This document shows positions 4,610-64,000 of a stretch of DNA of 64,000 nt, one piece after another (the first letter of the stretch is position 1; each line of letters opens with the position of its first letter). The position numbers and the translations under genes were made by a program. The notes below the pieces were generated by a model that had not been told where the DNA came from, did no database searches, and saw nothing but the letters and a program-made list of their open reading frames with translations. The DNA lies in the NCBI RefSeq assembly GCF_055900595.2, contig NZ_CM148325.1; one strand, given 5' to 3'.

Positions 4610-4618
4610 ATAATAAAC

Positions 4619-4636
4619 AACGCCCTGCGGGGCGTT
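4619..4636 (+). other. intercistronic hairpin between yihP and yihO
   Basis: AACGCCC (4619-4625), loop TGCG, GGGCGTT (4630-4636). It is followed by ATAAGGAG (the yihO RBS) rather than a T-run. Confidence 0.4.
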
Positions 4637-4649
4637 ATAAGGAGTGATT

Positions 4650-6053: not shown

Positions 6054-6120
6054 ATGTCAATAGCCGCTATTTCCATCCTGATGGGTGGCGGCCCCCCTAC
6101 GTTAAAAAAATGGACTTATT

Positions 6121-6813: not shown

Positions 6814-6822
6814 TGTGAAAAT

Positions 6823-6888
6823 GTAAAAAGTCGCTGATATGGACTGCCCCCCATAAAGTTGGACAGTTCAGGTTAAGCGGCTTTTTAC
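6823..6888 (+). terminator. possible long-stem terminator/structure downstream of ompL
   Basis: GTAAAAAGTCGCT (6823-6835) is complementary, with one mismatch, to AGCGGCTTTTTAC (6876-6888). The distal arm carries a T5 run. The large 40-nt loop makes the call tentative. Confidence 0.3.
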
Positions 6889-7025
6889 ACAGATATTCAC
6901 AATATAAATAACTCCCCATAATTATATAACCACGTTGATTATAAAATATTCCTCGTCCTCTCTATCAAAGTCATTGACTACCAGGTAAGATCTTTTCCAC
7001 CGCAACACTCACAAGGAATGAGAAA

Positions 7026-7874: not shown

Positions 7875-7886
7875 ATGACATTTATT

Positions 7887-7906
7887 GGGAGAGAGTCATC
7901 TCTCCC
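7887..7906 (+). terminator. perfect 8-bp stem-loop directly after the LRR gene; candidate partial terminator/attenuator
   Basis: GGGAGAGA (7887-7894), loop GTCA, TCTCTCCC (7899-7906), followed by the T-rich ATTATTTAT. It lies 13 nt after the LRR stop codon. Confidence 0.55.
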
Positions 7907-7934
7907 ATTATTTATCACAGAAAAGGAATTCTTC

Positions 7935-11017: not shown

Positions 11018-11871
11018 CGCTCAAGCAGATCCAGACGCTGATTTATCGCGGCGAGATAAAGTCGTGTAATTATCGCTGTGGTTATTGCCCTTTTCATAAA
11101 CAAGACCGCAATGATAAACAGCAGGATGAAGTGGCATTATGGCGCATGGTTGAACATTTACCGGCGCAGGGTTCACCATTAAATGTATTTATTACGCCCT
11201 ACGGCGAAGCATTGCGTTATCGTTATTATATGGCGGCGATGGCGGAAATCAGCCGCTATTCCCATGTGCAGGCGGTGGGTATTCAGACCAACGCCTCTTT
11301 TAATTTATCCACCTTAGTCGCGACTTTTCAGCACTCTCAGGGCGATTTAGCAAAGCTGCGGCTGTGGTGTTCGTTTCATCCTTCCCAGGCAAGTAAAGAA
11401 GTTTTCCTTAAACAGTTACTGGCAATTAAGGACACGGGGATTACCTGTTCTGTGGGGGCCGTCGCCAGCGTAGCCGACTATGACGAATTACAGTGGTTAC
11501 GCGCGCATCTTCCTCCCGATATCTATTTCTGGCTAAACGCCAATGAGCGCGATAAAAGGCCCACCAGCGACGAAAGAAATAGCCAGTTTCAGTTGCTGGA
11601 CCCGCTTTATTATCTGGAAACCAGCCTCTGGCCTGCCAATGTCGAGTTTTGTCTGGGCGGCAAAAAGAGCGTGTTTATGAATGCTGATGGCGATCTCTTC
11701 GCCTGTAATATCAGCAAAATTAAGATTGGCAATTTATATCAACAGCAACTTTCATCTCCGTCTTGTATGTCCAGGCACTGTCACTGTTATCTGGCTTATC
11801 ACCTGCGTGAGGATATTCCGGCCCTCTCACAATTTGATGCTGAACGCTGCTTTCGGATCTTCTCGTTATGA
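11014..11871 (+). CDS. small radical SAM enzyme with a C-terminal Cys-rich (SPASM/twitch-like) region
   Basis: 285-aa ORF with an ATGA overlap with the upstream gene. CX3CX2C motif SCNYRCGYC lies at 11065-11088, and a YGEAL (GGE-like) motif is present. The C-terminus carries CLGGKKSVFMNADGDLFAC then CMSRHCHC (from 11650). Confidence 0.8.
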   Translation: MTLKQIQTLIYRGEIKSCNYRCGYCPFHKQDRNDKQQDEVALWRMVEHLPAQGSPLNVFITPYGEALRYRYYMAAMAEISRYSHVQAVGIQTNASFNLSTLVATFQHSQGDLAKLRLWCSFHPSQASKEVFLKQLLAIKDTGITCSVGAVASVADYDELQWLRAHLPPDIYFWLNANERDKRPTSDERNSQFQLLDPLYYLETSLWPANVEFCLGGKKSVFMNADGDLFACNISKIKIGNLYQQQLSSPSCMSRHCHCYLAYHLREDIPALSQFDAERCFRIFSL

Positions 11872-12563
11872 TCTGGCGGTTAATCGCGCTCGATTTAGAC
11901 GGCACATTGCTGAACAGCAAGAAGATGATTTCCCCTGCGTCTGTTTCGGCACTGCAAAGCGCACAACAGGCAGGTGTGAAAATTATCCTCGCCACCGGAC
12001 GTTCGCACAGCGAAGCCCTGCCTTATTACCAACAATTGCAGTTAACCGAGCCGATGATTTGCTGTAACGGCAGCTATCTTTATCATCCGCGCCAGCGGCA
12101 AATATTGCGTCCGCTGGCGCTTGATATCCACAAGGTGGAAAGGCTACGACTCTGGTTTTCACAACAAATATTGCAGCCAAATATTTATACGTACGATGAT
12201 TTTGTTTTGCAGATTAGCCTGATACACCGCAAGGCTTCGTTATTGCGCCAGACAGAGGAATTTGCCCGACAAGAATTATCGCTGGCCTGTAGCTGGTCCT
12301 GGCATCATCAACTGGATATTACACAGGTGGGGTGTGAGAAAGGCAAAAGTCTGGCCTGGTATGCCCGACAGCAAAATATCGTGCTGGATGAAATCATCGC
12401 CTTTGGCGATAACGATAATGATGCGGGGATGCTGCGGATGGTAGGCAAAGGGATTGCGATGGGCAATGGCAGTTCGCTGGCAAAAGTCAGTGCTGACCGC
12501 GTTATTGGTCACAACAACACAGATGCTATTGCGGATTTTCTTGATGCGCAGGGTTTCAGATGA
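11868..12563 (+). CDS. HAD-superfamily Cof-type (IIB) phosphatase
   Basis: 231-aa ORF with an ATGA overlap with the upstream gene. It has motif I LDLDGTLL, motif II ILATGRS and motif IV AFGDNDNDAGML. Confidence 0.85.
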   Translation: MIWRLIALDLDGTLLNSKKMISPASVSALQSAQQAGVKIILATGRSHSEALPYYQQLQLTEPMICCNGSYLYHPRQRQILRPLALDIHKVERLRLWFSQQILQPNIYTYDDFVLQISLIHRKASLLRQTEEFARQELSLACSWSWHHQLDITQVGCEKGKSLAWYARQQNIVLDEIIAFGDNDNDAGMLRMVGKGIAMGNGSSLAKVSADRVIGHNNTDAIADFLDAQGFR

Positions 12564-12564
12564 C

Positions 12565-12600
12565 GCCTGATGCGATGCTGACGCATCTTATCAGGCCTAC
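12565..12600. repeat. REP (repetitive extragenic palindrome) element
   Basis: GCCTGATGCGATGCTGACGCATCTTATCAGGCCTAC matches the canonical E. coli REP consensus and its palindromic structure. Confidence 0.85.
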
Positions 12601-12605
12601 AAAAG

Positions 12606-12637
12606 CAAAAAACCTGCCATCGCTGGCAGGTTTTTTA
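12606..12637. terminator. bidirectional rho-independent terminator shared by the HAD gene (+) and typA (-)
   Basis: CCTGCCA (12613-12619) pairs with TGGCAGG (12624-12630). It is flanked by an A-run upstream and T6 downstream, so it reads as a terminator on both strands. Confidence 0.8.
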
Positions 12638-12653
12638 TGACTAAAAAACGAAA

Positions 12654-14477
12654 TTAATCGTCTTTCGGTGCGCGGTTGGCGCGACGACGATCGTTTTCCG
12701 TCAGGTGACGTTTACGAATACGGATAGAGGTCGGAGTCACTTCTACCAGTTCGTCATCATCGATGAACTCCAGCGCTTGTTCCAGCGTCATGCGGATAGG
12801 CGGAACCAGAACAACGGCTTCGTCAGTACCGGAAGCACGCATGTTGGTCAGTTTCTTACCGGTCAGACAGTTTACAGTCAGGTCGTTAGAACGGCTGTGA
12901 ATACCGATAATCTGACCTTCGTAAACTTCTGCACCGTGACCGAGGAACAGCTTACCGCGATCCTGCAGACCGAACAGCGCGAACGCGACCGCTTTACCCT
13001 GACCGTTAGAGATCAGTACGCCGTTCTGACGCTGACCCACTTCACCCGGACGCACGTCGTCGTAGTGGCTGAAGGTGGAGTACAACAGACCCGTACCAGA
13101 GGTCATGGTCATGAACTCAGAACGGAAGCCAATCAGACCACGGCTTGGGATCACGTAGTCGAGACGTACGCGGCCTTTACCGTCTGGATTCATGTTTTTC
13201 AGGTCGCCTTTACGTTCGCCCAGCGCCTGCATCACAGAACCCTGATGCTGTTCTTCAACGTCCAGCGTCACGTTTTCATACGGCTCTTGTTTACGACCGT
13301 CGATTTCACGGAAGATAACTTTCGGACGGGATACCGCCAGTTCGAAACCTTCACGACGCATGTTTTCGATCAGAACAGACAGGTGCAGTTCGCCACGACC
13401 AGAAACGCGGAACGCATCGGCGTCTTCAGTTTCTTCTACGCGCAGCGCAACGTTGTGTACCAGTTCTTTGTTCAGACGATCCAGAATCTGACGAGACGTT
13501 ACGAACTTACCTTCTTTACCGCAGAACGGCGAGGTGTTAACGCAGAAGAACATAGAAACGGTCGGCTCATCAACGGAGAGTGCCGGCAGCGCTTCAACGT
13601 TTTGCGTGTCGCAAACGGTGTCAGAAATGTTCAGTTCGCCCAGGCCCGTGATCGCCACGATATCGCCAGCTTCCGCCAGATCGGTTTCGATACGTTCCAG
13701 ACCGAGGTGGCCCAGCACTTTACCGACTTTCGCGTTGCGGGTTTTGCCTTCGCTATCGATGATAGTAACTTGCTGGTTCGGCTTCACTTTACCGCGCTTG
13801 ATGCGGCCAATGCCGATAACGCCAACATAGCTGTTGTAATCGAGCTGAGAAATCTGCATCTGGAACGGACCGTCAAGGTCAACGTCCGGCGCAGGAACGT
13901 GGTCAACAATTGCCTGATACAGCGGGGTCATGTCTTCCGCCATATCTTCGTGGTCCAGACCGGCGATACCGTTCAGCGCAGAAGCGTAAACGATCGGGAA
14001 GTCCAGCTGCTCGTCGGTCGCGTCGAGGTTAACGAACAGGTCGAATACCTGATCCACAACCCAGTCAGGACGCGCGCCAGGGCGGTCAACTTTGTTGATA
14101 ACAACAATTGGCTTCAGGCCGTAAGCAAACGCTTTTTTGGTTACGAAGCGCGTTTGCGGCATCGGGCCGTCAAATGCGTCAACCACCAGCAGCACTGAGT
14201 CTACCATGGACATTACACGTTCAACTTCACCACCGAAGTCGGCGTGCCCCGGGGTATCAACGATGTTGATACGGTAATCATTCCATTTGATAGCGGTGTT
14301 TTTCGCGAGGATGGTAATCCCACGCTCTTTCTCCAAATCGTTGGAGTCCATCACGCGCTCTTGGGTTTCGGCACGAGAGTCGAACGTACCGGATTGTTGG
14401 AGCAGCTTGTCTACCAGGGTGGTTTTACCATGGTCTACGTGCGCGATGATGGCGATATTACGCAATTTTTCGATCAC
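12654..14477 (-). CDS. typA: ribosome-dependent translational GTPase BipA/TypA
   Basis: 607-aa ORF starting [26 protein letters not shown] with G-domain motifs [13 protein letters not shown] and NKVD. It is identical in style to K-12 BipA. Confidence 0.98.
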
Positions 14478-47527: not shown

Positions 47528-48840
<1,313 letters not shown>

Positions 48841-48881
48841 CCTGTACTCCATATGACAACCGCCCTGACGGGCGGTTGAAT

Positions 48882-49658
48882 TTATTCTTCAGTTTTTTCG
48901 CTTTCTGCTTCAGCGTCGTTTTCCTCTTCCCGGTTTCGACCCTTACCAACGTAAAAGCGTGAGAAGAAGACACCGATTTCAAACAGGCAGTACATCGGGA
49001 TCGCCAGCAGCGTTTGCGAGAAGACATCCGGCGGCGTCAGCAGCATCCCGACAACAAATGCGCCAACCAGCACATACGGACGTTTTTTGCGTAAGTCTTC
49101 TGGCGAGGTAATTCCCATCCAGCACAGCAACACAATTGCCACCGGCACTTCAAAGGAGACACCAAACGCCATAAACAGCGCCATAACGAAGCTTAAATAG
49201 CTGGCGATGTCGGTGGATACCTGTACCCCTTCCGGCGCGGTATTGGCAAGGAAGCCAAATGCCAGAGGAAAGACCACAAAGTAGGCGAACGCCATGCCGA
49301 TATAAAACAGCAGAGAGCTGGAAACCAGCAGCGGCACCACCAGGCGACGTTCGTGCTTATACAATGCTGGGGCGATAAACGCCCACACCTGATAGAGAAT
49401 CACCGGCGCTGATAGAATCAGCGACACCATAAAGGTTAGCTTGATCGGCGTAAAGAACGGCGAGGCCACGTCAGTGGCGATCATCGTTGAGCCTTGCGGT
49501 AACTGCTTGATCAATGGCGCGGATACCAGGTGATAGATGTCATTGGCGAAATAGACCAGACACAGGAATATCACGATCACCGCGATAATGCAGTTCAGCA
49601 GACGCTTACGCAGCTCAATCAGATGCGTGATAAGCGGTTGAGTATCTTCTACAGACAT
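48882..49658 (-). CDS. tatC: twin-arginine translocase subunit TatC
   Basis: 258-aa ORF starting [32 protein letters not shown] with 6 TM segments. Confidence 0.97.
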
Positions 49659-49660
49659 GT

Positions 49661-50176
49661 TTACGGTTTATCACTCGACGAAGGGGAAGGTGCAGCGGTT
49701 TTCGGTTCAGCGTCCGCAGCAGGTTTTACCACCGGCTCTGGCGTGGTTTCTGGCTTCTGTTCTGGCGAACTGGCCTGCGTTTGTGCAGCGGCAGGCGTTA
49801 CGCCTTCATGCGCAGCTTCATTATCTTTCACCACCGGATTATGGATGGTGTGCGCTTCATCGCTCGCCTTTTCAGGATCGTTTGCAACGTAGGAACGCTT
49901 CATCGACTCCGCGGCCTGGCGTAGTTCATCCATCGACGCTTTCAGTTCGGGCGTCAGGTTAGTGAGGCTCGCCTTTTCAACCTTTTTCAGGCTGTCCTGA
50001 AACTCCTGGAGTTTTAACTCCTGGGTCAGTTCGTTCTGCACCGTTGTCGCCAGTGAACGCAACGCGCGAATCCAGCCCGCTACCGTTTTTACCGCCACAG
50101 GCAGTCGTTGCGGCCCCAGAACGACGAGGCCGATGATGAACACCAATAGCAGTTCGCTAAAACCGATATCAAACAC
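49661..50176 (-). CDS. tatB: twin-arginine translocase subunit TatB
   Basis: 171-aa ORF starting [40 protein letters not shown]. Confidence 0.97.
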
Positions 50177-50179
50177 GGA

Positions 50180-50449
50180 TTACACCTGCTCTTTATCGTG
50201 GCGCTTTGCGTCTTCTGTTTTAGCCTGTTCCTGATTCGTATCCGCCTGCTTATCGGCGATAGTTTTCGCAGTAAAATCAGCATCCTGACTGGTTTTATCC
50301 TGCTTTGGTTCATCATCGCTCATTGCTTTTTTAAAGCCTTTGATCGACGCACCAAGATCGGAACCGATGGAGCCGAGCTTTTTGGTGCCAAAAAGCAGTA
50401 CAACGATGACGGCAATAATCAATAACTGCCAAATACTGATACCACCCAT
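50180..50449 (-). CDS. tatA: twin-arginine translocase subunit TatA
   Basis: The start is set at ATG 50449 ([33 protein letters not shown]), giving 89 aa; the track ORF has a 14-codon extension. Confidence 0.97.
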
Positions 50450-50527
50450 ACATGTTCCTCTGTGGTAGATGATGATTAAACAAGGCCGCATTATACGTTA
50501 CACGGCCCGCCTTGAGCGATGAAAAAA

Positions 50528-52770
<2,243 letters not shown>

Positions 52771-52783
52771 TTCCGGTCTCCTG

Positions 52784-53539
52784 TCAGAACTTATAACCAC
52801 GATGCAGCGCCACAACCCCTGCCGTCAGGTTGTAATAGTCGACACTTTCGAATCCAGCATCCTGCATCATAGCTTTCAGGGTGTCCTGATCGGGATGCAT
52901 GCGGATAGATTCAGCAAGATAACGGTAGCTGTCAGCGTCGTTCGCGACCAGTGAGCCAATACGCGGCAGCACATGGAAGGAGTAAGCGTCATAGGCCTTA
53001 CTTAACGGCTCGATAATCGGCTTCGAGAACTCAAGCACCAGCAGTCGGCCGCCAGGTTTCAGAACGCGATACATTGAACGCAGAGCTTTATCTTTGTCAG
53101 TGACGTTACGCAGACCAAACGAAATGGTGATGCAATCAAAGGTGTTATCCGGGAACGGCAGCGCCTCAGCGTTCGCCTGAACATACTCAACGTTGCCAAT
53201 CACACCAATATTACGCAGCTTCTCGCGGCCCATTTTGAGCATGGATTCATTGATATCAGCAAGGACCACTTTGCCAGTTTCACCCACCAGGCGGGAGAAT
53301 TTCGCTGTCAGGTCGCCAGTACCGCCTGCCAGATCCAGCACGGTCTGCCCACGGCGTACGCCGCTGCAATCAATCGTGAAGCGTTTCCACAAACGATGTA
53401 TGCCAAAAGACATCAAATCATTCATGACATCGTATTTCGATGCCACGGAATGGAAAACGTGAGCGACCATATCCGCTTTTTGTTCCTTCGCGACGGTCTG
53501 AAAACCAAAGTGCGTCGTTTCTTGTGACTTATCCACCAT
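52784..53539 (-). CDS. ubiE: ubiquinone/menaquinone C-methyltransferase UbiE
   Basis: 251-aa ORF starting [41 protein letters not shown] with the SAM motif [10 protein letters not shown]. Confidence 0.97.
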
Positions 53540-53633
53540 CTCAATGCCTGCTCATCAAAAAATTGTTCCAGAAGTGTAACAGATTGGGCGTCGATGCCCT
53601 AGATTTCTACCCGGCTTAACTACCCCCAATGGG

Positions 53634-55061
53634 CTAGCGCGACTGCTGATTATATTCATCATCGCGTTGATAAGCTTCATCATTCGGCTGCTCCGGAACC
53701 GACCGCAGTCGATACTCTTCATCCTGGCTCACCGCTTGTTCAGCCAAATCCGGATTAATCTCGCGTTTAATTTCTACCCCTAAACCGCGAAACGCTTCTG
53801 CTTGCGCCAGCACATTTCCGCGACCTGAAGAGAGTTTTTTCATTGCCTGACGATAGTTGTCCTGTGCTTTGTCCAGACTTTGACCAATCGCGGACATATC
53901 ATCGACAAACAAGCGCATTTTGTCGTACAACTTGCTGGCGCGATCGGCTATTTTCTGGGCGTTACGACTTTGATGCTCATAGCGCCAGAGGTTGGCGATA
54001 GTGCGCAGCGCCACCAGCAGCGTGGTCGGGCTAACCAGCATGATATTGTTTTTCAACGCTTCGGTGATCAGCTCCGGCTGGCGGTCAAGCGCCAGTAAAA
54101 AAGCGGGTTCAACGGGAATAAACATCAGCACGTAATCCAGGGTTCGCAGCCCCGGCAGCTGTTGATAATCTTTGCGTCCCAGCAAACGGATATGGTTACG
54201 CACCGACGCGATATGTTCCTGTAGCGCGCTTTCGCGGGTGTAGTCGTCTTCTGCGTTGAAATAGCGTTCATAGGCGACCAGCGTCATTTTTGCGTCGATC
54301 ACCACAACTTTGCCCTGCGGCAGCCGCACGATGACATCCGGCTGCATCCGCGAGCGGGCGTCATTTTCGATGCTGACCTGGGTTTCATATTCATACCCTT
54401 CACGCAGACCGGAAGCCTCCAGCACACGCGTCAATACTACCTCGCCCCAGTTGCCCTGGGTTTTATTGTCGCCTTTCAGCGCACGCGTCAGGTTGATCGC
54501 TTCCTGGGCCATTTGCGCGTTGAGCTGCTGGAGATTGCGTATTTCGTGAGTCAGGGTATGGCGTTCTTGTGCTTCTTTACCGAAACTGTCCTGAACCTGA
54601 CGACGAAAACCGTCCAGTTGTTCACGTAGTGGCGACAACAGGCTGTTCAGACTCTGACGGTTTTGCTCATCAACCCGGCGATTGCTGTGCTCGAAAATAC
54701 GGTTGGCGAGGTTTTCAAACTGCTCACTGAGGCGCTGTTCGCTGTTGATCATTTGGCGAATTTTATCGTCAGCATGTTGCTGTACGGCCTCCATTCGCGT
54801 GGTGACCTCACGCAGATCCGCCTCCAGCGAGGTGTTAATGCTTTGCAGACTGCGCACTTCATTATTGAGTAACTCGCACTCAGCACGCCAATGTTCGCTT
54901 TGGGTAATTTGTTGTTTTGCCGCACTTAACTCCGCGACCATCTCTTCACGTTCAGCGAATTGCTCGGCTTTTTGCTGCGCATGCTGATAACTGGCAATCA
55001 GCCAGCCAATCGCCACGCTCACCAACGCAATAACTGCGTAAACCATGATTGAGATATCCAC
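53634..55061 (-). CDS. rmuC: DNA recombination protein RmuC
   Basis: The start is set at GTG 55061 (MDISIMVYAVIALV...) with a GGAGG RBS, giving 475 aa. It has an N-terminal TM segment, a coiled coil and a C-terminal nuclease-like domain. The track ORF extends 31 codons upstream. Confidence 0.93.
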   Translation of the reverse strand: MDISIMVYAVIALVSVAIGWLIASYQHAQQKAEQFAEREEMVAELSAAKQQITQSEHWRAECELLNNEVRSLQSINTSLEADLREVTTRMEAVQQHADDKIRQMINSEQRLSEQFENLANRIFEHSNRRVDEQNRQSLNSLLSPLREQLDGFRRQVQDSFGKEAQERHTLTHEIRNLQQLNAQMAQEAINLTRALKGDNKTQGNWGEVVLTRVLEASGLREGYEYETQVSIENDARSRMQPDVIVRLPQGKVVVIDAKMTLVAYERYFNAEDDYTRESALQEHIASVRNHIRLLGRKDYQQLPGLRTLDYVLMFIPVEPAFLLALDRQPELITEALKNNIMLVSPTTLLVALRTIANLWRYEHQSRNAQKIADRASKLYDKMRLFVDDMSAIGQSLDKAQDNYRQAMKKLSSGRGNVLAQAEAFRGLGVEIKREINPDLAEQAVSQDEEYRLRSVPEQPNDEAYQRDDEYNQQSR

Positions 55062-55178
55062 AACGCCTCCAGCCTCATTACTTACCCGCACAAAATAGAA
55101 TTGTGCTGTACAAACGTCCAGTTTGAAAGAAGTTTCCTGCGAGGCGCTACGCAAAACGATCCTTAATTTTTATTATTT

Positions 55179-55216
55179 TATCCCACAATATGAGACGTAG
55201 TTTATATTGTGGGATA
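55179..55216. promoter_or_regulatory. perfect 13-bp inverted repeat upstream of the IclR-family gene; candidate operator
   Basis: TATCCCACAATAT (55179-55191), a 12-nt spacer, then ATATTGTGGGATA (55204-55216). It lies in an AT-rich region about 60 nt upstream of the regulator ATG. Confidence 0.55.
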
Positions 55217-55276
55217 TATCACCTTTTCCCCACGTCATTATGTGGAACACTTCAGCAATATCATCAGGAGAAACGT

Positions 55277-56044
55277 ATGGCAGATACCTCTTCAACCACC
55301 GCTGGCGCACAAACGTTATTACGCGGGCTGGCGGTTCTTAATGCTGTTTATAACGGCTGCCATGACCTGAAAAGTATCGGCGAGTTCACCGGCACGACCC
55401 GGAGCACAACCCATCGTTTAGTCACCGTTCTGGTGGAACAACGCTACCTGCGCCACGTCCCAACGCAGGGCTACCAACTGGGCGCCAAACTGATCGAATT
55501 CGGTGCCAGAGCACTGGAAAGCACCTCGCTGTACGAAGTTGCGCTGCCCGTTTTGCAGCGTCTGGCCCGTTACACCCTGGACACCGTGCATCTGGGGATC
55601 GTTGAAGGCGGCGAAGTGCTGTATCTGGAGAAGATCAACAGTCAGCGTGGGCTGGAAATGCGCTCACGCCCAGGCCATCGCATGCCACTGGCAATCACCG
55701 GCATCGGCAAGGCATTGATCCTCAACCGAACAGAAGAAGAGTGGCGCACGCTGTTTAAGACCTGTGGTGATGAAACAAAACTGGGCACATTTATTCAGAA
55801 CATGCGTCGTTATGCCGCCAGTGGTTTTGCTTTTGATCTGGAAGAGAACGAGCCGACTATCCGTTGCGTTGCAGCGCCGGTTTACAACGCCCGGGATGAA
55901 ATTGTGGCGGCTATTTCTGTCGCCAGTACCACTACGTATATGTCACTGGCGCGTCTGGAAGAACTGGCACCTTACGTCAAATCCTGTGCAGAAGAGATAT
56001 CCGCTGAACTGGGCTGGGGTAAGCACGTCCACAAAAATAAATAA
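55277..56044 (+). CDS. IclR-family transcriptional regulator
   Basis: The start is set at ATG 55277 (MADTSSTTAGAQTLLRGLAVLNAV) after an AGGAG RBS, giving 255 aa. It has an N-terminal winged HTH (IGEFTGTTRSTTHRLVTVL) and a C-terminal IclR effector domain (PIRCVAAPVY-like: PTIRCVAAPVYN). Confidence 0.88.
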   Translation: MADTSSTTAGAQTLLRGLAVLNAVYNGCHDLKSIGEFTGTTRSTTHRLVTVLVEQRYLRHVPTQGYQLGAKLIEFGARALESTSLYEVALPVLQRLARYTLDTVHLGIVEGGEVLYLEKINSQRGLEMRSRPGHRMPLAITGIGKALILNRTEEEWRTLFKTCGDETKLGTFIQNMRRYAASGFAFDLEENEPTIRCVAAPVYNARDEIVAAISVASTTTYMSLARLEELAPYVKSCAEEISAELGWGKHVHKNK

Positions 56045-56067
56045 ACCATGACTAAAGGAAACGGCTA

Positions 56068-57072
56068 ATGTCGGGAAACACCTCATTTATTGCCCTGGAC
56101 TGGGGAACGTCATCGCTTCGGGCATGGCGTTTTGGCGACTCACCCAATCCACAAGAAAAACGTGAATTCCCGTGGGGGATCATGAAATTACCCTCCCAGG
56201 CAGCAACACGTGAGGACGCTTTCCACGATACGTTTTTACGTGTCTGCGGCGACTGGCTGGCACAATCCCAATGCCCGGTTCTGGCTTGCGGCATGATCGG
56301 CAGTGCGCAAGGGTGGCAACCCGCAGCTTATTTACCTTGCCCGGTCACTCTCGAGGGTCTGGCAAAGCAGTTGACGCCTGTTATCTACCAGCAGCAGACA
56401 ATGCTGCACATCATTCCCGGCGTGATTAAAGAAGGTGAAATGCCCGAAGTGATGCGTGGCGAAGAGACACAAATCTTCGGTGCTATCTCGATGGAACCGG
56501 CCCTGCAAAACGCGATCCGCCAGGGTATGCCTGTGCTGATTGGCTTACCTGGCACACATGCGAAATGGGCGGTAGTTGAAAACAACACCATTACCGATTT
56601 CCGAACCTTTATGACAGGCGAGTTATTTGATGTTTTATCCCGCCATTCGATTCTCGGTGCCACCATGCGTTCGGGAGATGAACCGCACTGGGATGCCTTC
56701 ACCCATGGGCTGAAATCAGCACAAGAGCATCATCAGACCGGATTATTATCGACGCTGTTTTCGACCCGTTCGCGCCTGCTGACCAGTAATCTTACGCCGT
56801 CCTCGCAGGGGGATTACCTTTCAGGATTACTGATAGGCCATGAATTATGCGGTCTGGCATCCAGTTTGCTACGTGATTTACCCGCCACAACACCGATCGC
56901 CTTAATCGGTAGCGCCACTCTGAACAGCCGCTATTCACAAGCATTCAGCCACGTTTTTCCCGACAGACAGCTACACGCCATTCCTAATGCCACTGAACAG
57001 GGGTTATGGCGAATCGCCCACGCTGCCGGGCTACTCTCCACCAACGCCAGGGAATGTACTCATGCCATTTAA
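56068..57072 (+). CDS. 2-dehydro-3-deoxygalactonokinase (DgoK) family sugar-acid kinase
   Basis: 334-aa ORF. It is similar by eye to E. coli DgoK: ALDWGTSSLRAW (vs AIDWGSTNLRAW), VMRGEETQIFGA, PGTHAKW...ITDFRTFMTGELF and LSGLLIGHEL. Confidence 0.85.
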   Translation: MSGNTSFIALDWGTSSLRAWRFGDSPNPQEKREFPWGIMKLPSQAATREDAFHDTFLRVCGDWLAQSQCPVLACGMIGSAQGWQPAAYLPCPVTLEGLAKQLTPVIYQQQTMLHIIPGVIKEGEMPEVMRGEETQIFGAISMEPALQNAIRQGMPVLIGLPGTHAKWAVVENNTITDFRTFMTGELFDVLSRHSILGATMRSGDEPHWDAFTHGLKSAQEHHQTGLLSTLFSTRSRLLTSNLTPSSQGDYLSGLLIGHELCGLASSLLRDLPATTPIALIGSATLNSRYSQAFSHVFPDRQLHAIPNATEQGLWRIAHAAGLLSTNARECTHAI

Positions 57073-57691
57073 TACGCTTTTGCAAAAAACCGGGTTAGTC
57101 GCCATTTTACGCGGCGTGAAACCGGATGAGATTGTCGCCATCGGTGAAAAGCTGTATGCCGCTGGATTTCGCCTGATTGAGATTCCCATGAACTCGCCGG
57201 AGCCGTTGCAAAGTATCAGTTTACTGCGCGACGCCCTGCCTAAGGACTGCCTGGTCGGAGCCGGAACTGTGCTTTCGGTGGAGCAAGTCGTCGCGGTTAA
57301 AGAGGCTGGAGGCCAGATTATCGTAATGCCGCATTGCGATACTGCGGTGATCCGTCGTGCCCGTGCGCTGGGTATGTATTGTGCGCCTGGCGTCGCTACG
57401 CCCACCGAAGCTTTTGCTGCCATTGAACATGGCGCCAATGCCATCAAGCTGTTCCCGGCTGAACAAATTACGCCTGAAGTCACCAAAGCCTGGCGTGCGG
57501 TTATTCCACAATCCGTTCCGATGTTACCGGTTGGCGGTATCACTCCAGACACAATGGCGCGTTATCTGAGCCACGGCGCAAACGGCTTTGGCCTCGGTTC
57601 TGCGCTATATCGCCCCGGCATGACGCCAGAGCAAGTCTATGAAAATGCAGTACTGTTTATGAACGCATGGAACAATTTAAATAGCAAATAA
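57062..57691 (+). CDS. 2-dehydro-3-deoxy-6-phosphogalactonate / KDPG-type class I aldolase (DgoA/Eda family)
   Basis: The start is set at ATG 57062 (MPFNTLLQKTGLVAILRGVKPDEIVAIGEKLYAAGFRLIEIPMNSP), giving 209 aa with an 11-nt overlap with the kinase gene. It matches DgoA motifs AILRG, EIPLNSP, GAGTVL, the K in LFPA and VGG. Confidence 0.85.
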   Translation: MPFNTLLQKTGLVAILRGVKPDEIVAIGEKLYAAGFRLIEIPMNSPEPLQSISLLRDALPKDCLVGAGTVLSVEQVVAVKEAGGQIIVMPHCDTAVIRRARALGMYCAPGVATPTEAFAAIEHGANAIKLFPAEQITPEVTKAWRAVIPQSVPMLPVGGITPDTMARYLSHGANGFGLGSALYRPGMTPEQVYENAVLFMNAWNNLNSK

Positions 57692-57715
57692 CTGATAAAT
57701 AAGGATATAAAAGCA

Positions 57716-58690
57716 ATGATAAAACATCTTACCTTACCGAAAAAAATGGCTGCAATGGTACTTCTTGCCGGCGCTGCCCTCAGCACTGCGCCTGTGCAGG
57801 CGGCCTCCTGGCCAACCAAACAGATCGAGTTAGTCGTACCCTACGCGGCCGGAGGCGGTACGGATCTGGTTGCCCGTGCCTTTGCTGATGCCGCCAAAAA
57901 CCATTTGCCCGTCAGCATCGGGGTTATCAATAAACCTGGCGGTGGCGGCGCTATCGGCCTGAGTGAAATCGCCGCTGCCCGCCCTAACGGTTACAAAATG
58001 GGTTTAGGCACGGTTGAACTGACCACCCTTCCCAGTCTCGGAATGGTGCGTTTTAAAACCAGCGACTTTAAACCCATTGCCCGTCTGAATGCGGATCCGG
58101 CTGCTATCACCGTCCGTGCCGATGCACCGTGGAATAGCTATGAAGAATTTATGACTTACGCCAAAGCGAATCCCGGAAAAGTACGCATTGGTAACTCAGG
58201 CACCGGAGCAATCTGGCATCTGGCGGCAGCTGCACTGGAAGACAAAACGGGCGTGAAGTTTTCTCATGTCCCATATGACGGCGCAGCCCCTGCCATTACA
58301 GGCCTGTTAGGCGGGCATATTGAAGCGGTTTCCGTAAGCCCAGGTGAAGTTATCAATCATGTGAAAGGCGGCAAGCTGAAGACACTGGTAGTGATGGCGG
58401 ATGAACATATGAAAACCATGCCTGACGTACCGACGTTAAAAGAGAAAGGCGTTGATCTCTCCATCGGCACCTGGCGCGGCCTGATTGTGTCGCAAAAAAC
58501 GCCGCAGGATGTGGTGGATGTTCTGGCAAAGGCAGCAAAAGAGACGGCTGAAGAGCCTGCATTCCAGGATGCGCTGCAAAAGTTGAATCTCAACTATGCA
58601 TGGCTTGATGGTGCCAGCTTCCAGACCCAAATCAACGAGCAGGAAAAGTACTTTGACGAGCTGCTGACTCGCCTGGGCCTGAAAAAATAA
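57716..58690 (+). CDS. tripartite tricarboxylate transporter (TTT) periplasmic substrate-binding protein, TctC/Bug family
   Basis: 324-aa ORF with a signal peptide ending APVQA-AS. It has the Bug-family motif VVPYAAGGGTDLVAR. Confidence 0.85.
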   Translation: MIKHLTLPKKMAAMVLLAGAALSTAPVQAASWPTKQIELVVPYAAGGGTDLVARAFADAAKNHLPVSIGVINKPGGGGAIGLSEIAAARPNGYKMGLGTVELTTLPSLGMVRFKTSDFKPIARLNADPAAITVRADAPWNSYEEFMTYAKANPGKVRIGNSGTGAIWHLAAAALEDKTGVKFSHVPYDGAAPAITGLLGGHIEAVSVSPGEVINHVKGGKLKTLVVMADEHMKTMPDVPTLKEKGVDLSIGTWRGLIVSQKTPQDVVDVLAKAAKETAEEPAFQDALQKLNLNYAWLDGASFQTQINEQEKYFDELLTRLGLKK

Positions 58691-58706
58691 TCCCGAGGTA
58701 CGGTCG

Positions 58707-59213
58707 ATGAACACAAAACAGTCTGTTGCTCAACTCGCCGTACCGCACCGCAAGCGCCTTTCATCCACTGTGGTGGTGGCGCTGTTACTTTGTGTGGTTG
58801 CTGGCGCGGTGATAATTAATGCCGCTGATTTTCCAGCAACTGCCATTGAAACGGATCCCGGTGCAAGTGCCTTCCCTACTTTCTATGCCTGCGCTCTGAT
58901 TGTGCTCGCTGTCTTACTTGTGATACGCGATCTTTTGCTGGCAAAACCAGTCCCTTGCGCCAACGCACAGGAAAAACCGGCATTCAGGAAAACGGCAACA
59001 GGAATTGCGGCAACCGCGTTTTATATCGTGGCAATGAGCTACTGCGGTTATCTCATTACTACTCCTGTTTTCCTCATCGTCATTATGGCATTGATGGGCT
59101 ACAGGCGATGGGTACTCACACCGGGTATTGCGCTGCTGTTAACGGCAATCCTCTGGTTGCTGTTTGTCGAAGCGTTACAGGTGCCATTGCCTGTCGGCAC
59201 ATTTTTCGAATAA
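58707..59213 (+). CDS. TTT small membrane subunit, TctB family
   Basis: 168-aa ORF with 4 hydrophobic segments and a GAGG RBS, positioned between the TctC and TctA genes. Confidence 0.75.
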   Translation: MNTKQSVAQLAVPHRKRLSSTVVVALLLCVVAGAVIINAADFPATAIETDPGASAFPTFYACALIVLAVLLVIRDLLLAKPVPCANAQEKPAFRKTATGIAATAFYIVAMSYCGYLITTPVFLIVIMALMGYRRWVLTPGIALLLTAILWLLFVEALQVPLPVGTFFE

Positions 59214-59225
59214 CAGGGGCCTGCA

Positions 59226-60716
59226 ATGTTTGAAAGTGAACTTTTAACTCAGGGGTTTTCGACATTACTCAGTAATCCTCAGGCGCTGCTGTTTGCCACG
59301 TTTGGAGTGATGCTGGGTATTATGATTGGCGCTCTGCCTGGCCTGACAGCGACCATGGGTGTGGCGATTTTGCTGCCTTTCACCTACGGCATGGAGCCTG
59401 TTTCTGGCTTGTTGATGATTTGCGGTGTCTTTTTTGGTGGTGTGTATGGTGGTTCTATCACCGCAATTTTGCTCAAAATTCCCGGTACGCCTGCCGCCGC
59501 TGCCACCGCCATTGACGGATATGAGCTGACGAAGCAGGGAAAAGCCGGGCTGGCGTTAAGTGCCGCCACGTTCTCTTCTTTTAGCGGTGGAACGCTCAGC
59601 ATTATCGTATTGATGTTTCTCTCTCCGGTACTTGCCAGTTGGGCGTTGAAATTTAGTGCCTCGGAGTCCTTCGCCCTGGCAACCTTCGGACTGAGCATTA
59701 TTGCCAGTATTTCCGGTGAGTCACTGATTAAAGGGCTGATTGCCGGGGTTGGCGGATTGCTTATCGCAACGATAGGCCTTGATCCAATGGGCGGTTTTCC
59801 ACGCTTTACAGGTGGATTTGTGGAGCTGATGAATGTGCCATTTATCCCGGTGATGATTGGTTTATTTGCTGCTTCAGAAGCATTCCGCTCTATGGAGCAA
59901 AACCAGCAAATTCGTCAGGGGGCGAAGGTGGCTATCGGCAGTCTGTTACTGCCCTGGCAAACACTACGCCGCATCGCATTAACCATTTTGCGCTCATCAG
60001 GATTAGGGGTTTTTATCGGCATGATCCCCGGTGCGGGGGCAGATATTGCAGCTTTTGTTGCCTATAACGAAACTCGTCGTTTCAGTAAGACGCCTGAAAA
60101 CTTTGGTAAGGGTGAGATTAAGGCGGTGGCCTCCTGTGAGGCAGGCGCGAATGGCTGCACCGGTGGCGCATTGTTACCTATGCTGACGTTGGGGATCCCA
60201 GGCGATGCGGTAACTGCCATCATGCTGGGCGCGTTAACGTTACAAGGGATGCAGCCAGGCCCACTTATGTTTACCGACCACGGCGATATGGTTTATACGC
60301 TGTTTGTCGGCATGATCTTTTGTTACTTCATGCTGCTAGTTCTTGGACTGCTCTCTTTGAAAGTCATCGGTAACGTGGTGAAGATCCCCGGCAATATTCT
60401 CACGCCGATGATCCTCGCACTTTGTGTGGTCGGGACTTATGCGCTGAACAATAGCCTGTTTGATGTTGGCATTATGCTGATTGCAGGCGTGGTGGGCTAT
60501 TTCATGCAAAAAGGGGGGTATCCGGCATCACCCGTAGTGCTGGCATTGATTATGGGGCCAATGGCGGAAAGTAATTTTCGCCGTGCGCTGTCGCTTTCTG
60601 GTGGGTCACTCGACTTTCTGTATACCCGACCGATAACCCTGGCATTGCTGACACTGGCAGCCTTTACGCTACTGACGCCAATAATACGCAAAATTATGCG
60701 CTTACGGCGTCAGTAA
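59226..60716 (+). CDS. TTT large permease subunit, TctA family
   Basis: 496-aa polytopic membrane protein. It has typical TctA features: GALPGLTATMGVAILLP, GIPGDAVTAIMLGAL and GMIPGAGADIAAF. Confidence 0.85.
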   Translation: MFESELLTQGFSTLLSNPQALLFATFGVMLGIMIGALPGLTATMGVAILLPFTYGMEPVSGLLMICGVFFGGVYGGSITAILLKIPGTPAAAATAIDGYELTKQGKAGLALSAATFSSFSGGTLSIIVLMFLSPVLASWALKFSASESFALATFGLSIIASISGESLIKGLIAGVGGLLIATIGLDPMGGFPRFTGGFVELMNVPFIPVMIGLFAASEAFRSMEQNQQIRQGAKVAIGSLLLPWQTLRRIALTILRSSGLGVFIGMIPGAGADIAAFVAYNETRRFSKTPENFGKGEIKAVASCEAGANGCTGGALLPMLTLGIPGDAVTAIMLGALTLQGMQPGPLMFTDHGDMVYTLFVGMIFCYFMLLVLGLLSLKVIGNVVKIPGNILTPMILALCVVGTYALNNSLFDVGIMLIAGVVGYFMQKGGYPASPVVLALIMGPMAESNFRRALSLSGGSLDFLYTRPITLALLTLAAFTLLTPIIRKIMRLRRQ

Positions 60717-60770
60717 TTGATATCGCTCCCCGACGTTGGGGAGTATGAGACTGATGACAAACGCTAAATT

Positions 60771-60868
60771 GCCTGATGCGCTGCGCTTATCAGGCCTACC
60801 ACAGAAATGCAATATATTGAATTTGCATGCTTTTGTAGGCCGGATAAGGCGATCACGCCGCATCCGGC
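60771..60868. repeat. BIME (two inverted REP units around an A/T-rich core)
   Basis: GCCTGATGCGCTGCGCTTATCAGGCCTAC (60771-60799) and GTAGGCCGGATAAGGCGATCACGCCGCATCCGGC (60835-60868). Confidence 0.85.
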
Positions 60869-60901
60869 ATGAACAAAGCACACGTTAACAACAATCGGAA
60901 T

Positions 60902-60928
60902 GCTCCCCTAAGCCAGGGAGCGTTTTTT
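60902..60928. terminator. hairpin terminator between convergent tctA-like gene and udp
   Basis: GCTCCC (60902-60907), an 8-nt loop, GGGAGC (60916-60921), followed by GTTTTTTAT on the plus strand. The T-run overlaps the udp stop codon. Confidence 0.7.
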
Positions 60929-61691
60929 ATTTCAGCAGACGACGCGCCGCTTCCACCACGATTTTCACCGCATGGCTTTCGGTTTGTTTCATCGTCTCAG
61001 CATTCGGGATCTCTTGTTGGGTACGATTGACGATAACGCCCGCCACCATACCGGCACGAAGGCCCTGGCTTGCACACATGGTCAGCAGGGTTGCAGATTC
61101 CATTTCATAGTTCATTACGCCCATCGCCTGCCACTCTTCCATAGAACCTTTAAAGTGACGAACTACGCGACCAGAGTAAGTATCGTAACGTTCCTGACCT
61201 GGGTAGAAGGTATCAGAAGAAGCCGTCACGCCAACGTGAGTCGTCGCGCCGATGGATTTCGCAGCCTCAACCAGCGCGGTCGTACATTCGAAATCAGCGA
61301 CAGCCGGGAATTCCAGCGGTGCGAAGTGCAGGCTCGCGCCATCCAGACGAACAGACGCCGTGGTAACCAGGACATCGCCAACATTAATATGCGGCTGAAT
61401 AGCGCCCGTTGTACCGATACGCAGGAAGGTGCGAATGCCCAGCTGTGCCAGCTCTTCAACTGCAATAGAGGTAGACGGGCCGCCGATACCGGTAGAGCAG
61501 ACGATAACAGGTTTACCATCCAGCTCTGCACGCCAGGTGGTGAATTCGCGGTGAGATGCCAGCTTAACCGGCTTATCCATCAGCGCGGCGATCTTTTCCA
61601 CACGATCCGGGTCGCCAGGGACGATGGCAAGCGTAGCCCCTTGTAAATCGTTTTTAGTGAGGCCGAGATGAAAAACATCAGACTTGGACAT
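60927..61691 (-). CDS. udp: uridine phosphorylase
   Basis: The start is set at ATG 61691 ([31 protein letters not shown]) after a GAGGAG RBS, giving 253 aa. Confidence 0.97.
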
Positions 61692-61952
61692 ATACAACTC
61701 CTCTGTGAATCGGTTTAGTCAGAAGAAGCAAAAAGACACTTTACCGAAGGGTTTAACATTTTTTCGTGACACTCATCACCTTGATGCAAATGCGTTGCAT
61801 AAATTTACCCAGCAAAAGTGATGCGAATCACATAAATCACTCTTCATTCTGCATGACTGCATAAAAGATGAGCCGATTCAGGCAATGTGATTTGTTGCAT
61901 GCTGACTATAGTTAACATTGCGCAACATTTTTATAAGGGTACGGAGAATACC

Positions 61953-62768
61953 ATGGCAACAACACAACAATCTGGATTTGCACCTGCTGCATCACCTCTC
62001 GCTTCGACCATCGTTCAGACCCCGGATGACGCGATTGTAGCAGGCATCACCTCTATCCCTTCACAAGGGGATAACATGCCTGCTTACCATGCCAGACCAA
62101 AGCAGAGCGATGGCCTACTACCAGTGGTCATTGTAGTGCAGGAAATTTTTGGCGTGCATGAACATATCCGCGATATTTGTCGCCGTCTGGCGCTGGAGGG
62201 GTATCTGGCTATCGCACCTGAACTTTACTTCCGCGAAGGCGATCCGAATGATTTTGCCGATATCCCTACGCTGCTTAGCGGTCTGGTAGCAAAAGTGCCT
62301 GACTCGCAGGTGCTGGCCGATCTCGATCATGTCGCCAGTTGGGCGTCACGCAACGGCGGCGATGTTCATCGCTTAATGATCACCGGATTTTGCTGGGGTG
62401 GGCGCATCACCTGGCTGTATGCTGCGCATAATCCACAACTGAAAGCAGCGGTGGCATGGTACGGCAAATTAACCGGCGATAAGACGCTGAATTCACCGAA
62501 ACAACCTGTTGATATCGCAACCGATCTTAACGCTCCGGTTCTCGGCTTATATGGCGGCCAGGATAACAGCATTCCGCAGGAGAGCGTTGAAACCATGCGC
62601 CAGGCGCTGCGGGCTGCTAATGCGAAAGCAGAGATTATCGTCTACCCGGATGCCGGGCATGCATTCAACGCCGATTATCGCCCGAGCTATCATGCCGAAT
62701 CTGCGAAAGATGGCTGGCAGCGAATGCTGGAGTGGTTCAGGCTGTATGGTGGGAAGAAGTCGCTGTAA
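61953..62768 (+). CDS. ysgA: dienelactone hydrolase family protein YsgA (DlhH)
   Basis: The start is set at ATG 61953 ([31 protein letters not shown]), giving 271 aa. It has the nucleophile-elbow-like motif GFCWGG and a DAGHAF motif. Confidence 0.93.
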
Positions 62769-62777
62769 TGAGAAAAG

Positions 62778-62800
62778 ACCGGGTGGTATTACCACCCGGT
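62778..62800. terminator. bidirectional hairpin terminator between ysgA and metE
   Basis: ACCGGGTGGTA / TACCACCCGGT is a perfect palindrome centred at 62789. It is flanked by an A-run (plus-strand upstream) and TTGGATTTT downstream. Confidence 0.8.
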
Positions 62801-62807
62801 TTGGATT

Positions 62808-64000
62808 TTACCCCCGACGCAAATTCTGCGCCGCCTGCACCATGTTCGCCAGTGCCGCGCGGGTTTCTGGCCAGCCGCGCGTTTTCAGACCACAGTCCGG
62901 GTTGACCCACAGACGCTCTGCCGGAATGCGTTTTGCCGCTTTCTTCAGCAGGGACTCAATCCATTCCACGCTCGGTACGTTTGGCGAGTGAATGTCATAG
63001 ACGCCAGGACCGATTTCATTCGGATAATCAAACTCTTCAAACGACTCCAGCAACTCCATGTCGGAACGCGAGGTTTCGATTGTGATGACGTCAGCATCCA
63101 GCGCCGCAATCGAATCCATGATGTCGTTGAACTCGCAGTAACACATGTGAGTGTGGATTTGCGTGTCATCTTTCGCTACGGCAGCGTTGATACGGAAAGC
63201 CTCCACGCCCCACTGAAGATAGGCATCCCAGTCGCTGCGACGCAGCGGTAAACCTTCGCGTAGCGCCGGTTCATCAATCTGGATGATGCCAATTCCAGCC
63301 GCTTCCAGATCGGCCACTTCATCACGCAGCGCCAGCGCAATTTGTTTGGCGATGGTTTCACGGCTGACATCTTCACGCGGGAACGACCAGCAGAGAATGG
63401 TCACCGGACCAGTCAGCATCCCTTTCACCGGTTTGTCGGTCAGCGATTGCGCATACTTCGCCCACTCCACAGTAATCGGTGCCGGGCGGCTAACGTCACC
63501 AATGACAATCGGTGGCTTCACGCAGCGGGAACCGTAGCTCTGTACCCAACCGTTTTGCGTAAAGACAAAGCCATCCAGGTGCTCGCCAAAGTATTCCACC
63601 ATGTCATTACGCTCGGCCTCACCATGCACCAGCACATCCAGACCCAGACGTTCCTGCTCAACAATGGCCTGCTTGATATGTTCTGCAATGCCCGTACGAT
63701 AGTTGTTGGCGTCGAGATTACCCTTTTTGAAATCCAGACGCAGGGTACGGATTTCTGTGGTTTGCGGGAAAGAGCCAATCGTGGTGGTCGGCCAGGCTGG
63801 CAGTTTAAAACGCGCACGCTGGGCTTCAGCACGCACTTCATAAACGTTCGCACGCTGACTGTCCTGGGCGGTGATCGCCGACAGACGCTTTTCTACTGCC
63901 GGATTATGTACACGAGTAGAGTGACGACGCGCCTGAATCGGAGCGCTCCACCCTGCCAGAGCTGCCGTATCACCACTGTTCAGCGCATCGCGCAGCAATG
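62808..64000 (-). CDS. metE: cobalamin-independent methionine synthase MetE, C-terminal portion (gene continues beyond the window)
   Basis: The ORF is open to the window edge. The C-terminal catalytic domain has zinc-ligand motifs HTHMCYCEF and PDCGLKTR and ends AQNLRRG*. Confidence 0.96.

Follow-up and report, generated by a model that had tools for sequence, protein, structure and literature searches.

A six-gene operon between rmuC and udp of Escherichia coli, predicted to take up and degrade a galactonate-series sugar acid

The 64,000-nt stretch of DNA analysed here (the window; RefSeq assembly GCF_055900595.2, contig NZ_CM148325.1, E. coli strain E200086) carries between rmuC and udp an operon of six genes that is missing from this site in E. 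coli K-12. The genes code for an IclR-family regulator, a kinase of the DGOK family, a class I aldolase of the 2-keto-3-deoxy-6-phosphogalactonate (KDPGal) type and the three subunits TctC, TctB and TctA of a tripartite tricarboxylate transporter (TTT). It is very probable that these proteins would act in the import of an acid, its phosphorylation and aldol cleavage of the product. Our more specific reading, to which we assign a probability of about 0.45, is that of a chromosomal catabolic operon for the regulated, high-affinity uptake and catabolism of a galactonate-series acid, with 2-keto-3-deoxy-D-galactonate (KDGal) slightly favoured as substrate.

Gene content and layout of the operon

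All six genes lie on the plus strand, in the order iclR (55277-56044, 255 aa, RefSeq WP_032304169.1), the kinase gene (56068-57072, 334 aa, PF05035), the aldolase gene (57062-57691, 209 aa, NF006600), tctC for the TctC/Bug-family periplasmic binding protein (57716-58690, 324 aa, PF03401), tctB for the small membrane subunit (58707-59213, 168 aa, PF07331) and tctA for the large membrane subunit (59226-60716, 496 aa, PF01970). The six open reading frames (ORFs) take up the whole region, with intergenic gaps from iclR to tctA of 23, -11, 24, 16 and 12 nt, the negative value being an 11-nt overlap of the kinase and aldolase genes. A first-pass annotation, made from the letters of the DNA, had described precisely this arrangement, namely six plus-strand genes in one operon with short spacers and one 11-nt overlap, and had named the same gene families. 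Its description agrees with the ORFs, with the Pfam searches, in which all six products passed the gathering score with a full-length match, with the curated models discussed below and with the RefSeq record of E. coli E200086 (isolated from human stool in Mali). This record is 100% identical to the window and has the same six genes annotated, under names that stay at the family level. The statement in the first-pass annotation that rmuC and udp are neighbours in K-12 also proved correct, since the two genes are 140 bp apart in K-12 MG1655. In a pairwise alignment, the borders of the indel relative to K-12 fall at window positions 55157 and 60928, and the K-12 counterpart of this interval consists of 43 unrelated bp with an udp terminator hairpin of its own.

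For iclR, we prefer the start at 55277 over the start of the mechanically called ORF at 55190 (284 aa), because the former is preceded by an AGGAGA Shine-Dalgarno sequence and because homologues of the regulator are 249-255 aa long. The 284-aa ORF would start within the inverted repeat described below.

Kinase and aldolase

The kinase matched the DGOK profile PF05035 with 299.8 bits (cut-off 25) over positions 1-281 of 281, and its best solved structure is 3R1X (E=1e-36). The motifs DWG, R18, GMxGS, GW, RGEE, PGTHxKW and MTGE are invariant in an alignment that includes E. coli DgoK. The protein belongs to a longer subtype with several insertions (about 316-337 aa versus 292-298 aa, K-12 DgoK having 292 aa). 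With 35% identity to K-12 DgoK and no match to any NCBIfam model, it is not orthologous to the characterised DgoK by the identity or equivalog criterion, and we refer to it as a predicted 2-keto-3-deoxygalactonate kinase of the 'long' subtype.

The assignment of the aldolase is narrower. The protein scored 322.9 bits against NF006600, the curated model for KDPGal aldolase (cut-off 207), and stayed under the cut-offs for Eda (134.7 versus 156 bits for TIGR01182, eda). It is 46% identical to K-12 DgoA, whose structure 2V81 is its best solved relative (E=1e-49). Lys129, Glu40 and Val157 align with K126, E37 and V154 of DgoA and with K133, E45 and T161 of Eda; thus, the Schiff-base lysine and the catalytic glutamate are kept, and a valine is found where Eda has Thr161. 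In the literature on the 2V81 structure, this last position is tied to stereochemistry.

All six genes are under purifying selection. The ratios of nonsynonymous to synonymous substitution (dN/dS) relative to the copy in phylogroup B2 range from 0.01 to 0.25, with 0.14-0.25 for the kinase, 0.04 for the aldolase and 0.01-0.02 for TctA, and the comparison with Escherichia whittamii gave the same picture. A decaying relic was considered and rejected as an explanation of the locus.

Based on families and motifs, the kinase would phosphorylate a 2-keto-3-deoxy-hexonate at C6 to yield KDPGal, which the KDPGal-type aldolase would then cleave to pyruvate and glyceraldehyde-3-phosphate. The sequence of acid import, phosphorylation and aldol cleavage to these two products had been put forward in the first-pass annotation, and the enzyme assignments lend support to it.

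Transporter and binding protein

All three TTT components, represented by PF03401, PF07331 and PF01970, scored above threshold and are encoded by adjacent genes in the order C-B-A; TctA matched PF01970 over its full length with 505 bits. The N-terminus of TctC, MIKHLTLPKKMAAMVLLAGAALSTAPVQA followed by AS, has the basic and hydrophobic stretches and the AxA layout of a predicted signal peptide, which would end at VQA before the AS, and the solved homologues align from residue 29 on. TctC is therefore predicted to be an exported binding protein. It would bind the substrate in the periplasm and hand it to TctBA, with uptake presumably driven by an ion gradient.

The closest solved structure of TctC is that of Bpro_3516 from Polaromonas (4X9T, E=3e-99), which was solved in the apo form and has no assigned ligand (PMC5812351). 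The second-closest one, 25HK (E=1e-63), is the TTT-C protein of Vibrio sp. C42, which binds unsaturated alginate oligosaccharides, i.e. uronate oligosaccharides (PMC13390454). TctC shares eight of the 11 residues that have been proposed as contacts in 25HK, and this relative shows that a TTT can carry sugar-derived acids. The alignments to BugD and BugE gave E values of 1e-47 and 1e-41, respectively. The first loop of the cassette TctC reads GGGTD as in the Vibrio uronate-oligosaccharide binder, whereas BugD and MatC have a proline at the position equivalent to Gly24.

The second loop sets the cassette proteins apart. In an alignment of 27 proteins, SGTGAIWH (with T163 and A165) is common to all TctC proteins of the cassette type, whereas 'orphan' TctC proteins linked to dehydratases have N163 and S165 at these positions. 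The loop of the Vibrio protein reads STAAPN-FY, and the alginate locus of this bacterium feeds into 2-keto-3-deoxygluconate (KDG) rather than KDGal. The loop of the Polaromonas protein, GGNGSTWH, is of the type found in orphan TctC proteins beside FucD-like dehydratases and not of the cassette type. In the literature on BugD and BugE, this loop is described as contacting the ligand carboxylate. The difference in this loop is compatible with a different ligand and is no proof of one.

The orphan relatives of TctC (50-58% identity) were found in Comamonadaceae, next to DgoA-DgoD-DgoK, to DgoD, to IlvD/EDD dehydratases, to FucD-like dehydratases of the enolase superfamily and to 2-hydroxyacid dehydrogenases. 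In two of these loci, the TctC relative stands beside a DgoD that is 75% or 74% identical to DgoD of E. coli. Relatives in Firmicutes lie beside sulfonate ABC transporters and are uninformative, and an Azohydromonas locus has only signalling genes nearby. Because the orphan relatives adjoin sugar-acid genes, the TctC clade is predicted to be associated with sugar acids rather than with tricarboxylates such as citrate.

These contexts bear on the possibility that TctCBA is a citrate or tricarboxylate importer as in Salmonella and has nothing to do with the neighbouring enzymes. The TctCBA and Bug-family systems of Salmonella and Bordetella share with the cassette the three-component architecture and the full-length Pfam matches. 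The name of the family and the Pfam membership of all three subunits speak for such a role. However, the six genes are co-inherited as a unit in many lineages, no TctD/TctE two-component regulator is encoded at the locus, where the regulator is of the IclR type, the closest relatives of TctC stand in sugar-acid clusters, and the nearest structure with a ligand binds uronate oligosaccharides and not citrate. For these reasons, we regard a citrate transporter as hardly credible and rejected it.

The cassette in other proteobacteria

Cassette contexts were located via relatives of TctC, and genes in loci of high GC content were called based on the GC content at third codon positions (GC3). In alpha-, beta- and gammaproteobacteria alike, the six genes stay together in the order IclR-DGOK-aldolase-TctC-TctB-TctA. 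Outside the site studied here, this order occurs in unrelated neighbourhoods in Brenneria, Uliginosibacterium, Rhodoferax, Azospirillum thermophilum, A. brasilense and a soil metagenome-assembled genome (MAG). No dehydratase gene was present in any of the 13 cassettes examined, which come from three proteobacterial classes.

Some cassettes are extended. In A. brasilense, Rhodoferax and the soil MAG, genes for a lactonase of the SMP-30 type and a short-chain dehydrogenase/reductase (SDR) are added; the best curated match of the SDR is glucose 1-dehydrogenase, below the cut-off. On plasmid p2 of A. brasilense Sp7, the cassette comprises eight genes (6377-13932 of the compared stretch), with the lactonase gene overlapping the tctA stop codon and the SDR gene coming next. 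A. brasilense is a genetically tractable host for identification of the substrate. Enterobacter hormaechei and Lelliottia show the same gene order with extra genes (4079-13003 and 4078-12997 of the compared stretches, respectively; TctC 62-65% identical), namely those for a divergently transcribed second DGOK kinase of 331 aa without NCBIfam match and for an iron-type alcohol dehydrogenase, as well as another IclR gene downstream. This version suggests a two-branch pathway for related acids.

Control region and regulator

The regulator consists of an N-terminal HTH_IclR domain (PF09339) and a C-terminal IclR_C domain (PF01614). It scored below the cut-off of every NCBIfam equivalog (KdgR, AllR, IclR, BhcR and PcaR), the best curated scores being 140 bits for BhcR and 123.5 bits, against a cut-off of 275, for KdgR. 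The divergent control region between the rmuC start at 55061 and the iclR start at 55277 (55062-55276) contains a perfect 13-nt inverted repeat, TATCCCACAATAT-N12-ATATTGTGGGATA (55179-55216), located 60-100 nt upstream of iclR. Within about 1 kb, a perfect repeat this long would hardly be expected by chance. In the alignment, its arms are kept in the B2 and E. whittamii copies and the spacer is variable. A perfect 13-nt repeat of a comparable kind, built on ATCCC/GGGAT cores, is present upstream in Buttiauxella, and similar GGGAT elements can be made out by eye in the Klebsiella sequence. We infer that the repeat is the operator of the IclR-family protein.

A CRP-like site, TGTGG-N6-TCACC (55208-55223, 8/10 consensus matches), overlaps the right arm of the repeat. 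Its cores TTGTG and ATCACC are invariant in an alignment of Escherichia and Klebsiella in which adjacent columns diverge. In a region as large as this one, chance would yield about 0.2 matches of this quality. A consensus scan for plus-strand promoters gave nothing convincing, and the Rfam scan revealed no riboswitch or leader, only matches derived from repetitive extragenic palindromic (REP) elements. In the scheme that we propose, the IclR-family protein would repress the operon via the conserved repeat upstream of its own gene and be released by a sugar-acid effector, and cAMP-CRP would probably also be needed for expression.

Candidate substrates

The first-pass annotation had found the physiological substrate not evident. 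The sugar-acid context of the binding-protein relatives now narrows it to the galactonate/2-keto-3-deoxygalactonate series; the exact acid is left to the following arguments. The genome of the window also has a complete dgoRKADT locus, and D-galactonate is the specific effector of its regulator DgoR (PMC12288454). That another kinase and aldolase are kept, separately regulated and under selection, suggests that the substrate is likely one that does not induce dgo. Since dehydratase genes are absent from the cassettes across three proteobacterial classes, and since the binding loop of the cassette proteins differs from that of the dehydratase-linked relatives, we slightly favour free KDGal over D-galactonate as the imported species, a preference that we hold tentatively. 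Wild-type K-12 reportedly makes no use of external 2-oxo-3-deoxygalactonate unless it carries regulatory mutations.

Alternatively, TctCBA could be a high-affinity scavenger of D-galactonate, which would be dehydrated by the unlinked DgoD, with the kinase and aldolase of the cassette duplicating DgoK and DgoA. The necessary dgoD gene is present in the genome of the window and in 5020 of 5426 E. coli genomes, TctC relatives stand beside bona fide DgoD in the two Comamonadaceae loci mentioned above, and the lactonase and the glucose-1-dehydrogenase-like SDR of the extended cassettes would correspond to the upper, galactonate-making steps of the De Ley-Doudoroff pathway. In addition, a similar IclR-dgoK-TTT locus was predicted by Leyn et al. 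to import D-galactonate (PMC5507952). On the other hand, the dehydratase step that this route needs is encoded in 0/13 cassettes, and cytoplasmic D-galactonate would induce dgoKA anyway, yet the kinase and aldolase of the cassette are under purifying selection. The binding-loop positions also differ from those of the dehydratase-linked relatives. On balance, we consider D-galactonate rather unlikely as the imported acid.

The prediction by Leyn et al. is one of several points that weigh against our reading. The substrate is proposed from context. The lactonase and SDR of the extended cassettes would normally yield an aldonate, e.g. D-galactonate, in need of a dehydratase encoded elsewhere. With its low identity to DgoK and its lack of an NCBIfam match, the kinase could have a different substrate. 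The CRP-like site, taken on its own, would be no better than a chance match and is a candidate only. Finally, free KDGal has no established natural source in the gut.

If KDGal is nevertheless the imported species, the dehydratase-less cassette could be a dedicated route by which free 2-keto-3-deoxy sugar acids, most of all KDGal, are salvaged with the help of the TTT binding protein; this extension of the argument is possible and more doubtful than the preference for KDGal itself. The extended cassettes with lactonase and SDR might start from 3-deoxy sugars or 3-deoxy-aldonolactones and arrive at the same keto-deoxy acid, again without a dehydratase. We know of no bacterial precedent for such a route.

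A third possibility is that the operon serves another acid, such as a different sugar acid of the 2-keto-3-deoxy or 3-deoxy type or one formed from unsaturated uronates, and that its enzymes act on an analogue of KDGal. Such a substrate would fit the distinct long subtype of the kinase with its 35% identity to DgoK and no curated model match, the second DGOK paralogue and the iron-type alcohol dehydrogenase in Enterobacter and Lelliottia, and the orphan relatives in the context of FucD-like enzymes and 2-hydroxyacid dehydrogenases. It fits badly with the aldolase, which is far over the KDPGal-aldolase cut-off and has an active site of the DgoA type, so that KDPGal would be the simplest kinase product. 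We therefore judge another acid to be improbable.

Distribution and age of the locus

The interior of the locus was found in 27% of the complete E. coli genomes (1457 of 5426). In 1452 the locus is full-length and invariably occupies this site. It is single-copy, and of the 1465 matching places all but one, a plasmid match, are chromosomal. Carriers include O25b:H4-ST131, LF82, Nissle 1917, ATCC 11775, B and BL21-AI. The names of the proteins clustered at 90% identity, all of them generic, extend the list by E. fergusonii, IAI39 and a single Shigella sonnei, and E. whittamii carries the locus as well. In other genera, the same site between rmuC and udp is occupied in Klebsiella spallanzanii, K. 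indica, Buttiauxella warmboldiae and Metakosakonia massiliensis. In M. massiliensis, no rmuC was called between ubiE and the IclR gene, and rmuC is apparently missing there.

The term accessory island, used in the first-pass annotation, is apt insofar as the locus is missing from K-12. It is not apt as a description of a recent insertion. A recent horizontal acquisition by the carrier lineages would account for the patchy occurrence within E. coli and for the fact that the closest relatives outside the Enterobacteriaceae are beta- and alphaproteobacteria. However, neither integrase nor transposase genes are among the ORFs of the region, which confirms the reported lack of mobility genes, and no tRNA genes, border direct repeats or PHROG phage-family matches were detected at the locus. 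GC content is 0.50-0.57 inside and 0.45-0.56 outside the locus, and the synonymous divergence (dS) from the B2 copy is 0.07-0.23 for the six genes and 0.08-0.27 for rmuC, ubiE and udp. A plasmid search found the binding-protein gene on no enterobacterial plasmid. Furthermore, the site is identical in the other genera named above, and the locus occurs in E. whittamii; E. fergusonii and IAI39 also carry it if the names of their proteins are taken as a guide.

E. coli HS-02 (NZ_CP172818.1) has an unannotated remnant of about 1.4 kb between rmuC and a 3'-truncated udp pseudogene. This stretch (6795-8205 of the compared stretch) matches iclR and the start of the kinase gene with 79% identity and looks like an in-situ deletion remnant, though errors in the assembly might explain the low identity as well. 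Taken together, the shared site, the flank-like dS and composition, the absence of mobility genes and the HS-02 remnant point to an old, vertically inherited locus that was probably lost repeatedly and deleted in K-12-like lineages. A recently acquired mobile island is, in our view, quite improbable, and this explanation was rejected.

Comparison with known systems

The best-known system for comparison is dgoRKADT, which coexists with the cassette in one genome. Both comprise a DGOK kinase and a KDPGal aldolase whose catalytic residues agree, and both would end in pyruvate and glyceraldehyde-3-phosphate. In contrast to dgoRKADT, the cassette has no DgoD, its kinase and aldolase are only 35% and 46% identical to the dgo proteins, and regulation and transport rely on an IclR protein and a TTT dependent on a substrate-binding protein rather than on the GntR/FadR-type DgoR and the symporter DgoT of the major facilitator superfamily.

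The KdgR regulon for free KDG (kdgT, kdgK and eda) is similar in its composition of an IclR-family repressor, a 2-keto-3-deoxy-acid transporter, a kinase and a class I aldolase, without a dehydratase, and KdgR is the second-best curated match of the cassette regulator. Unlike in this regulon, the genes of the cassette form one operon, the kinase is of the DGOK and not the PfkB family, the aldolase is of the galacto-specific type, the transporter belongs to another family and the regulator reaches 124 versus 275 bits. If KDGal is the substrate, the cassette could be regarded as the galacto counterpart of the KdgR-controlled kdgT/kdgK/eda genes.

The GalR(IclR)-DgoK-TTT locus of the alphaproteobacterium Salinivirga fredricksonii HL-109 (Leyn et al. 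2017, PMC5507952) likewise clusters an IclR regulator, dgoK and a TTT, with a galactonate-series acid as predicted substrate. This purely bioinformatic prediction, in which D-galactonate is both substrate and effector, is likened to the cassette here by description and not by sequence. TTT systems for sugar-derived acids are already documented, and the architecture of IclR, dgoK and TTT has been predicted in one alphaproteobacterium.

In the open-access full-text literature, we found no experimental study of the E. coli locus, in agreement with the novelty claimed in the first-pass annotation. The locus is not mentioned in E. coli strain comparisons, in the Nissle metabolic model, in a six-strain regulatory-network study or in the 2025 study on natural variation of DgoR, and neither the kinase nor any of the three transporter subunits is covered by an NCBIfam model. 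BL21/B, Nissle 1917, ST131, LF82 and the type strain of the species carry an intact, selected and apparently unstudied uptake operon. K-12 is not known to have a TTT system. If free 2-keto-3-deoxy acids are salvaged by the operon, B2 strains, B/BL21 and Nissle would gain a substrate for which K-12 has neither an importer nor a sensor.

Sugar acids including D-galactonate have been implicated in gut colonisation (PMC12288454), and high-affinity uptake of a galactonate-series acid could add to niche differences between phylogroups. Such uptake would also be relevant for metabolic models and chassis engineering. As the cassette is widespread in proteobacteria, the assignment of a single ligand would improve the annotation of many genomes, and the TTT family, so far poorly charted, would gain a defined specificity for a sugar acid. 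The interest of the locus lies in an uncharacterised operon in BL21, Nissle and lineages of extraintestinal pathogenic E. coli (ExPEC), in the wide conservation of a dehydratase-less cassette and in a pair of candidate substrates, KDGal and D-galactonate, that growth and binding assays could separate cleanly.

Spacer on the udp side, flanking genes and source strain

The spacer between tctA and udp measures 210 bp in the window (60717-60926), as opposed to 34 bp in the B2 type strain ATCC 11775, where a single hairpin is followed by TTTTTTT and the udp stop codon and no bacterial interspersed mosaic element (BIME) is present. The window has a plus-strand hairpin just 3' of the tctA stop codon (60725-60743), set apart from the T-run in this lineage, then a BIME of two REP units in opposite orientation (about 60771-60870), and an intrinsic plus-strand terminator with an 11-bp stem and a T-run (60897-60933) that abuts the udp stop codon. 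The BIME and the hairpin terminator had been noticed in the first-pass annotation; the inverted REP units, the Rfam matches and the terminator scan, which picked up the hairpin and T-run at 60897-60926, are in line with both. The BIME sequence is multi-copy in E. coli genomes and its Rfam matches, naRNA4 and ES036, are both REP-derived. The window has about 175 bp of extra length here, among them the BIME and one more copy of the GCTCCCC...GGGAGC hairpin. Given the short spacer of ATCC 11775 with its one hairpin and T-run, the BIME is a lineage-specific insertion that split a single terminator of the B2 type.

The flanking genes rmuC (53634-55061, RefSeq start at 55061) and udp (60927-61691) are both encoded on the minus strand. 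The mechanically called rmuC ORF (53634-55154, 506 aa, TTG start) is too long; its match to the RmuC equivalog model begins at residue 32, in agreement with the 475-aa protein and the start at 55061 in RefSeq.

In the part of the window from 47720 to 64000, the core flanks have about 95-96% nucleotide identity to K-12 and to the B2 type strain and 93% to E. whittamii, and only 8 of the 5426 E. coli genomes match the locus at >=99% identity. Because of this core-flank identity and the small number of close locus matches, the source strain E200086, although filed as E. coli, looks like a member of a divergent lineage of Escherichia and possibly of a cryptic clade. Outside the window (5156833-5175291 of the RefSeq record), the strain has a type III effector gene and a frameshifted effector gene of the ShET2/EspL2 family. 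It also carries an lpfA-O113 fimbrial operon; these effector and fimbrial genes lie near pstS and tnaA and hint at a pathotype background.

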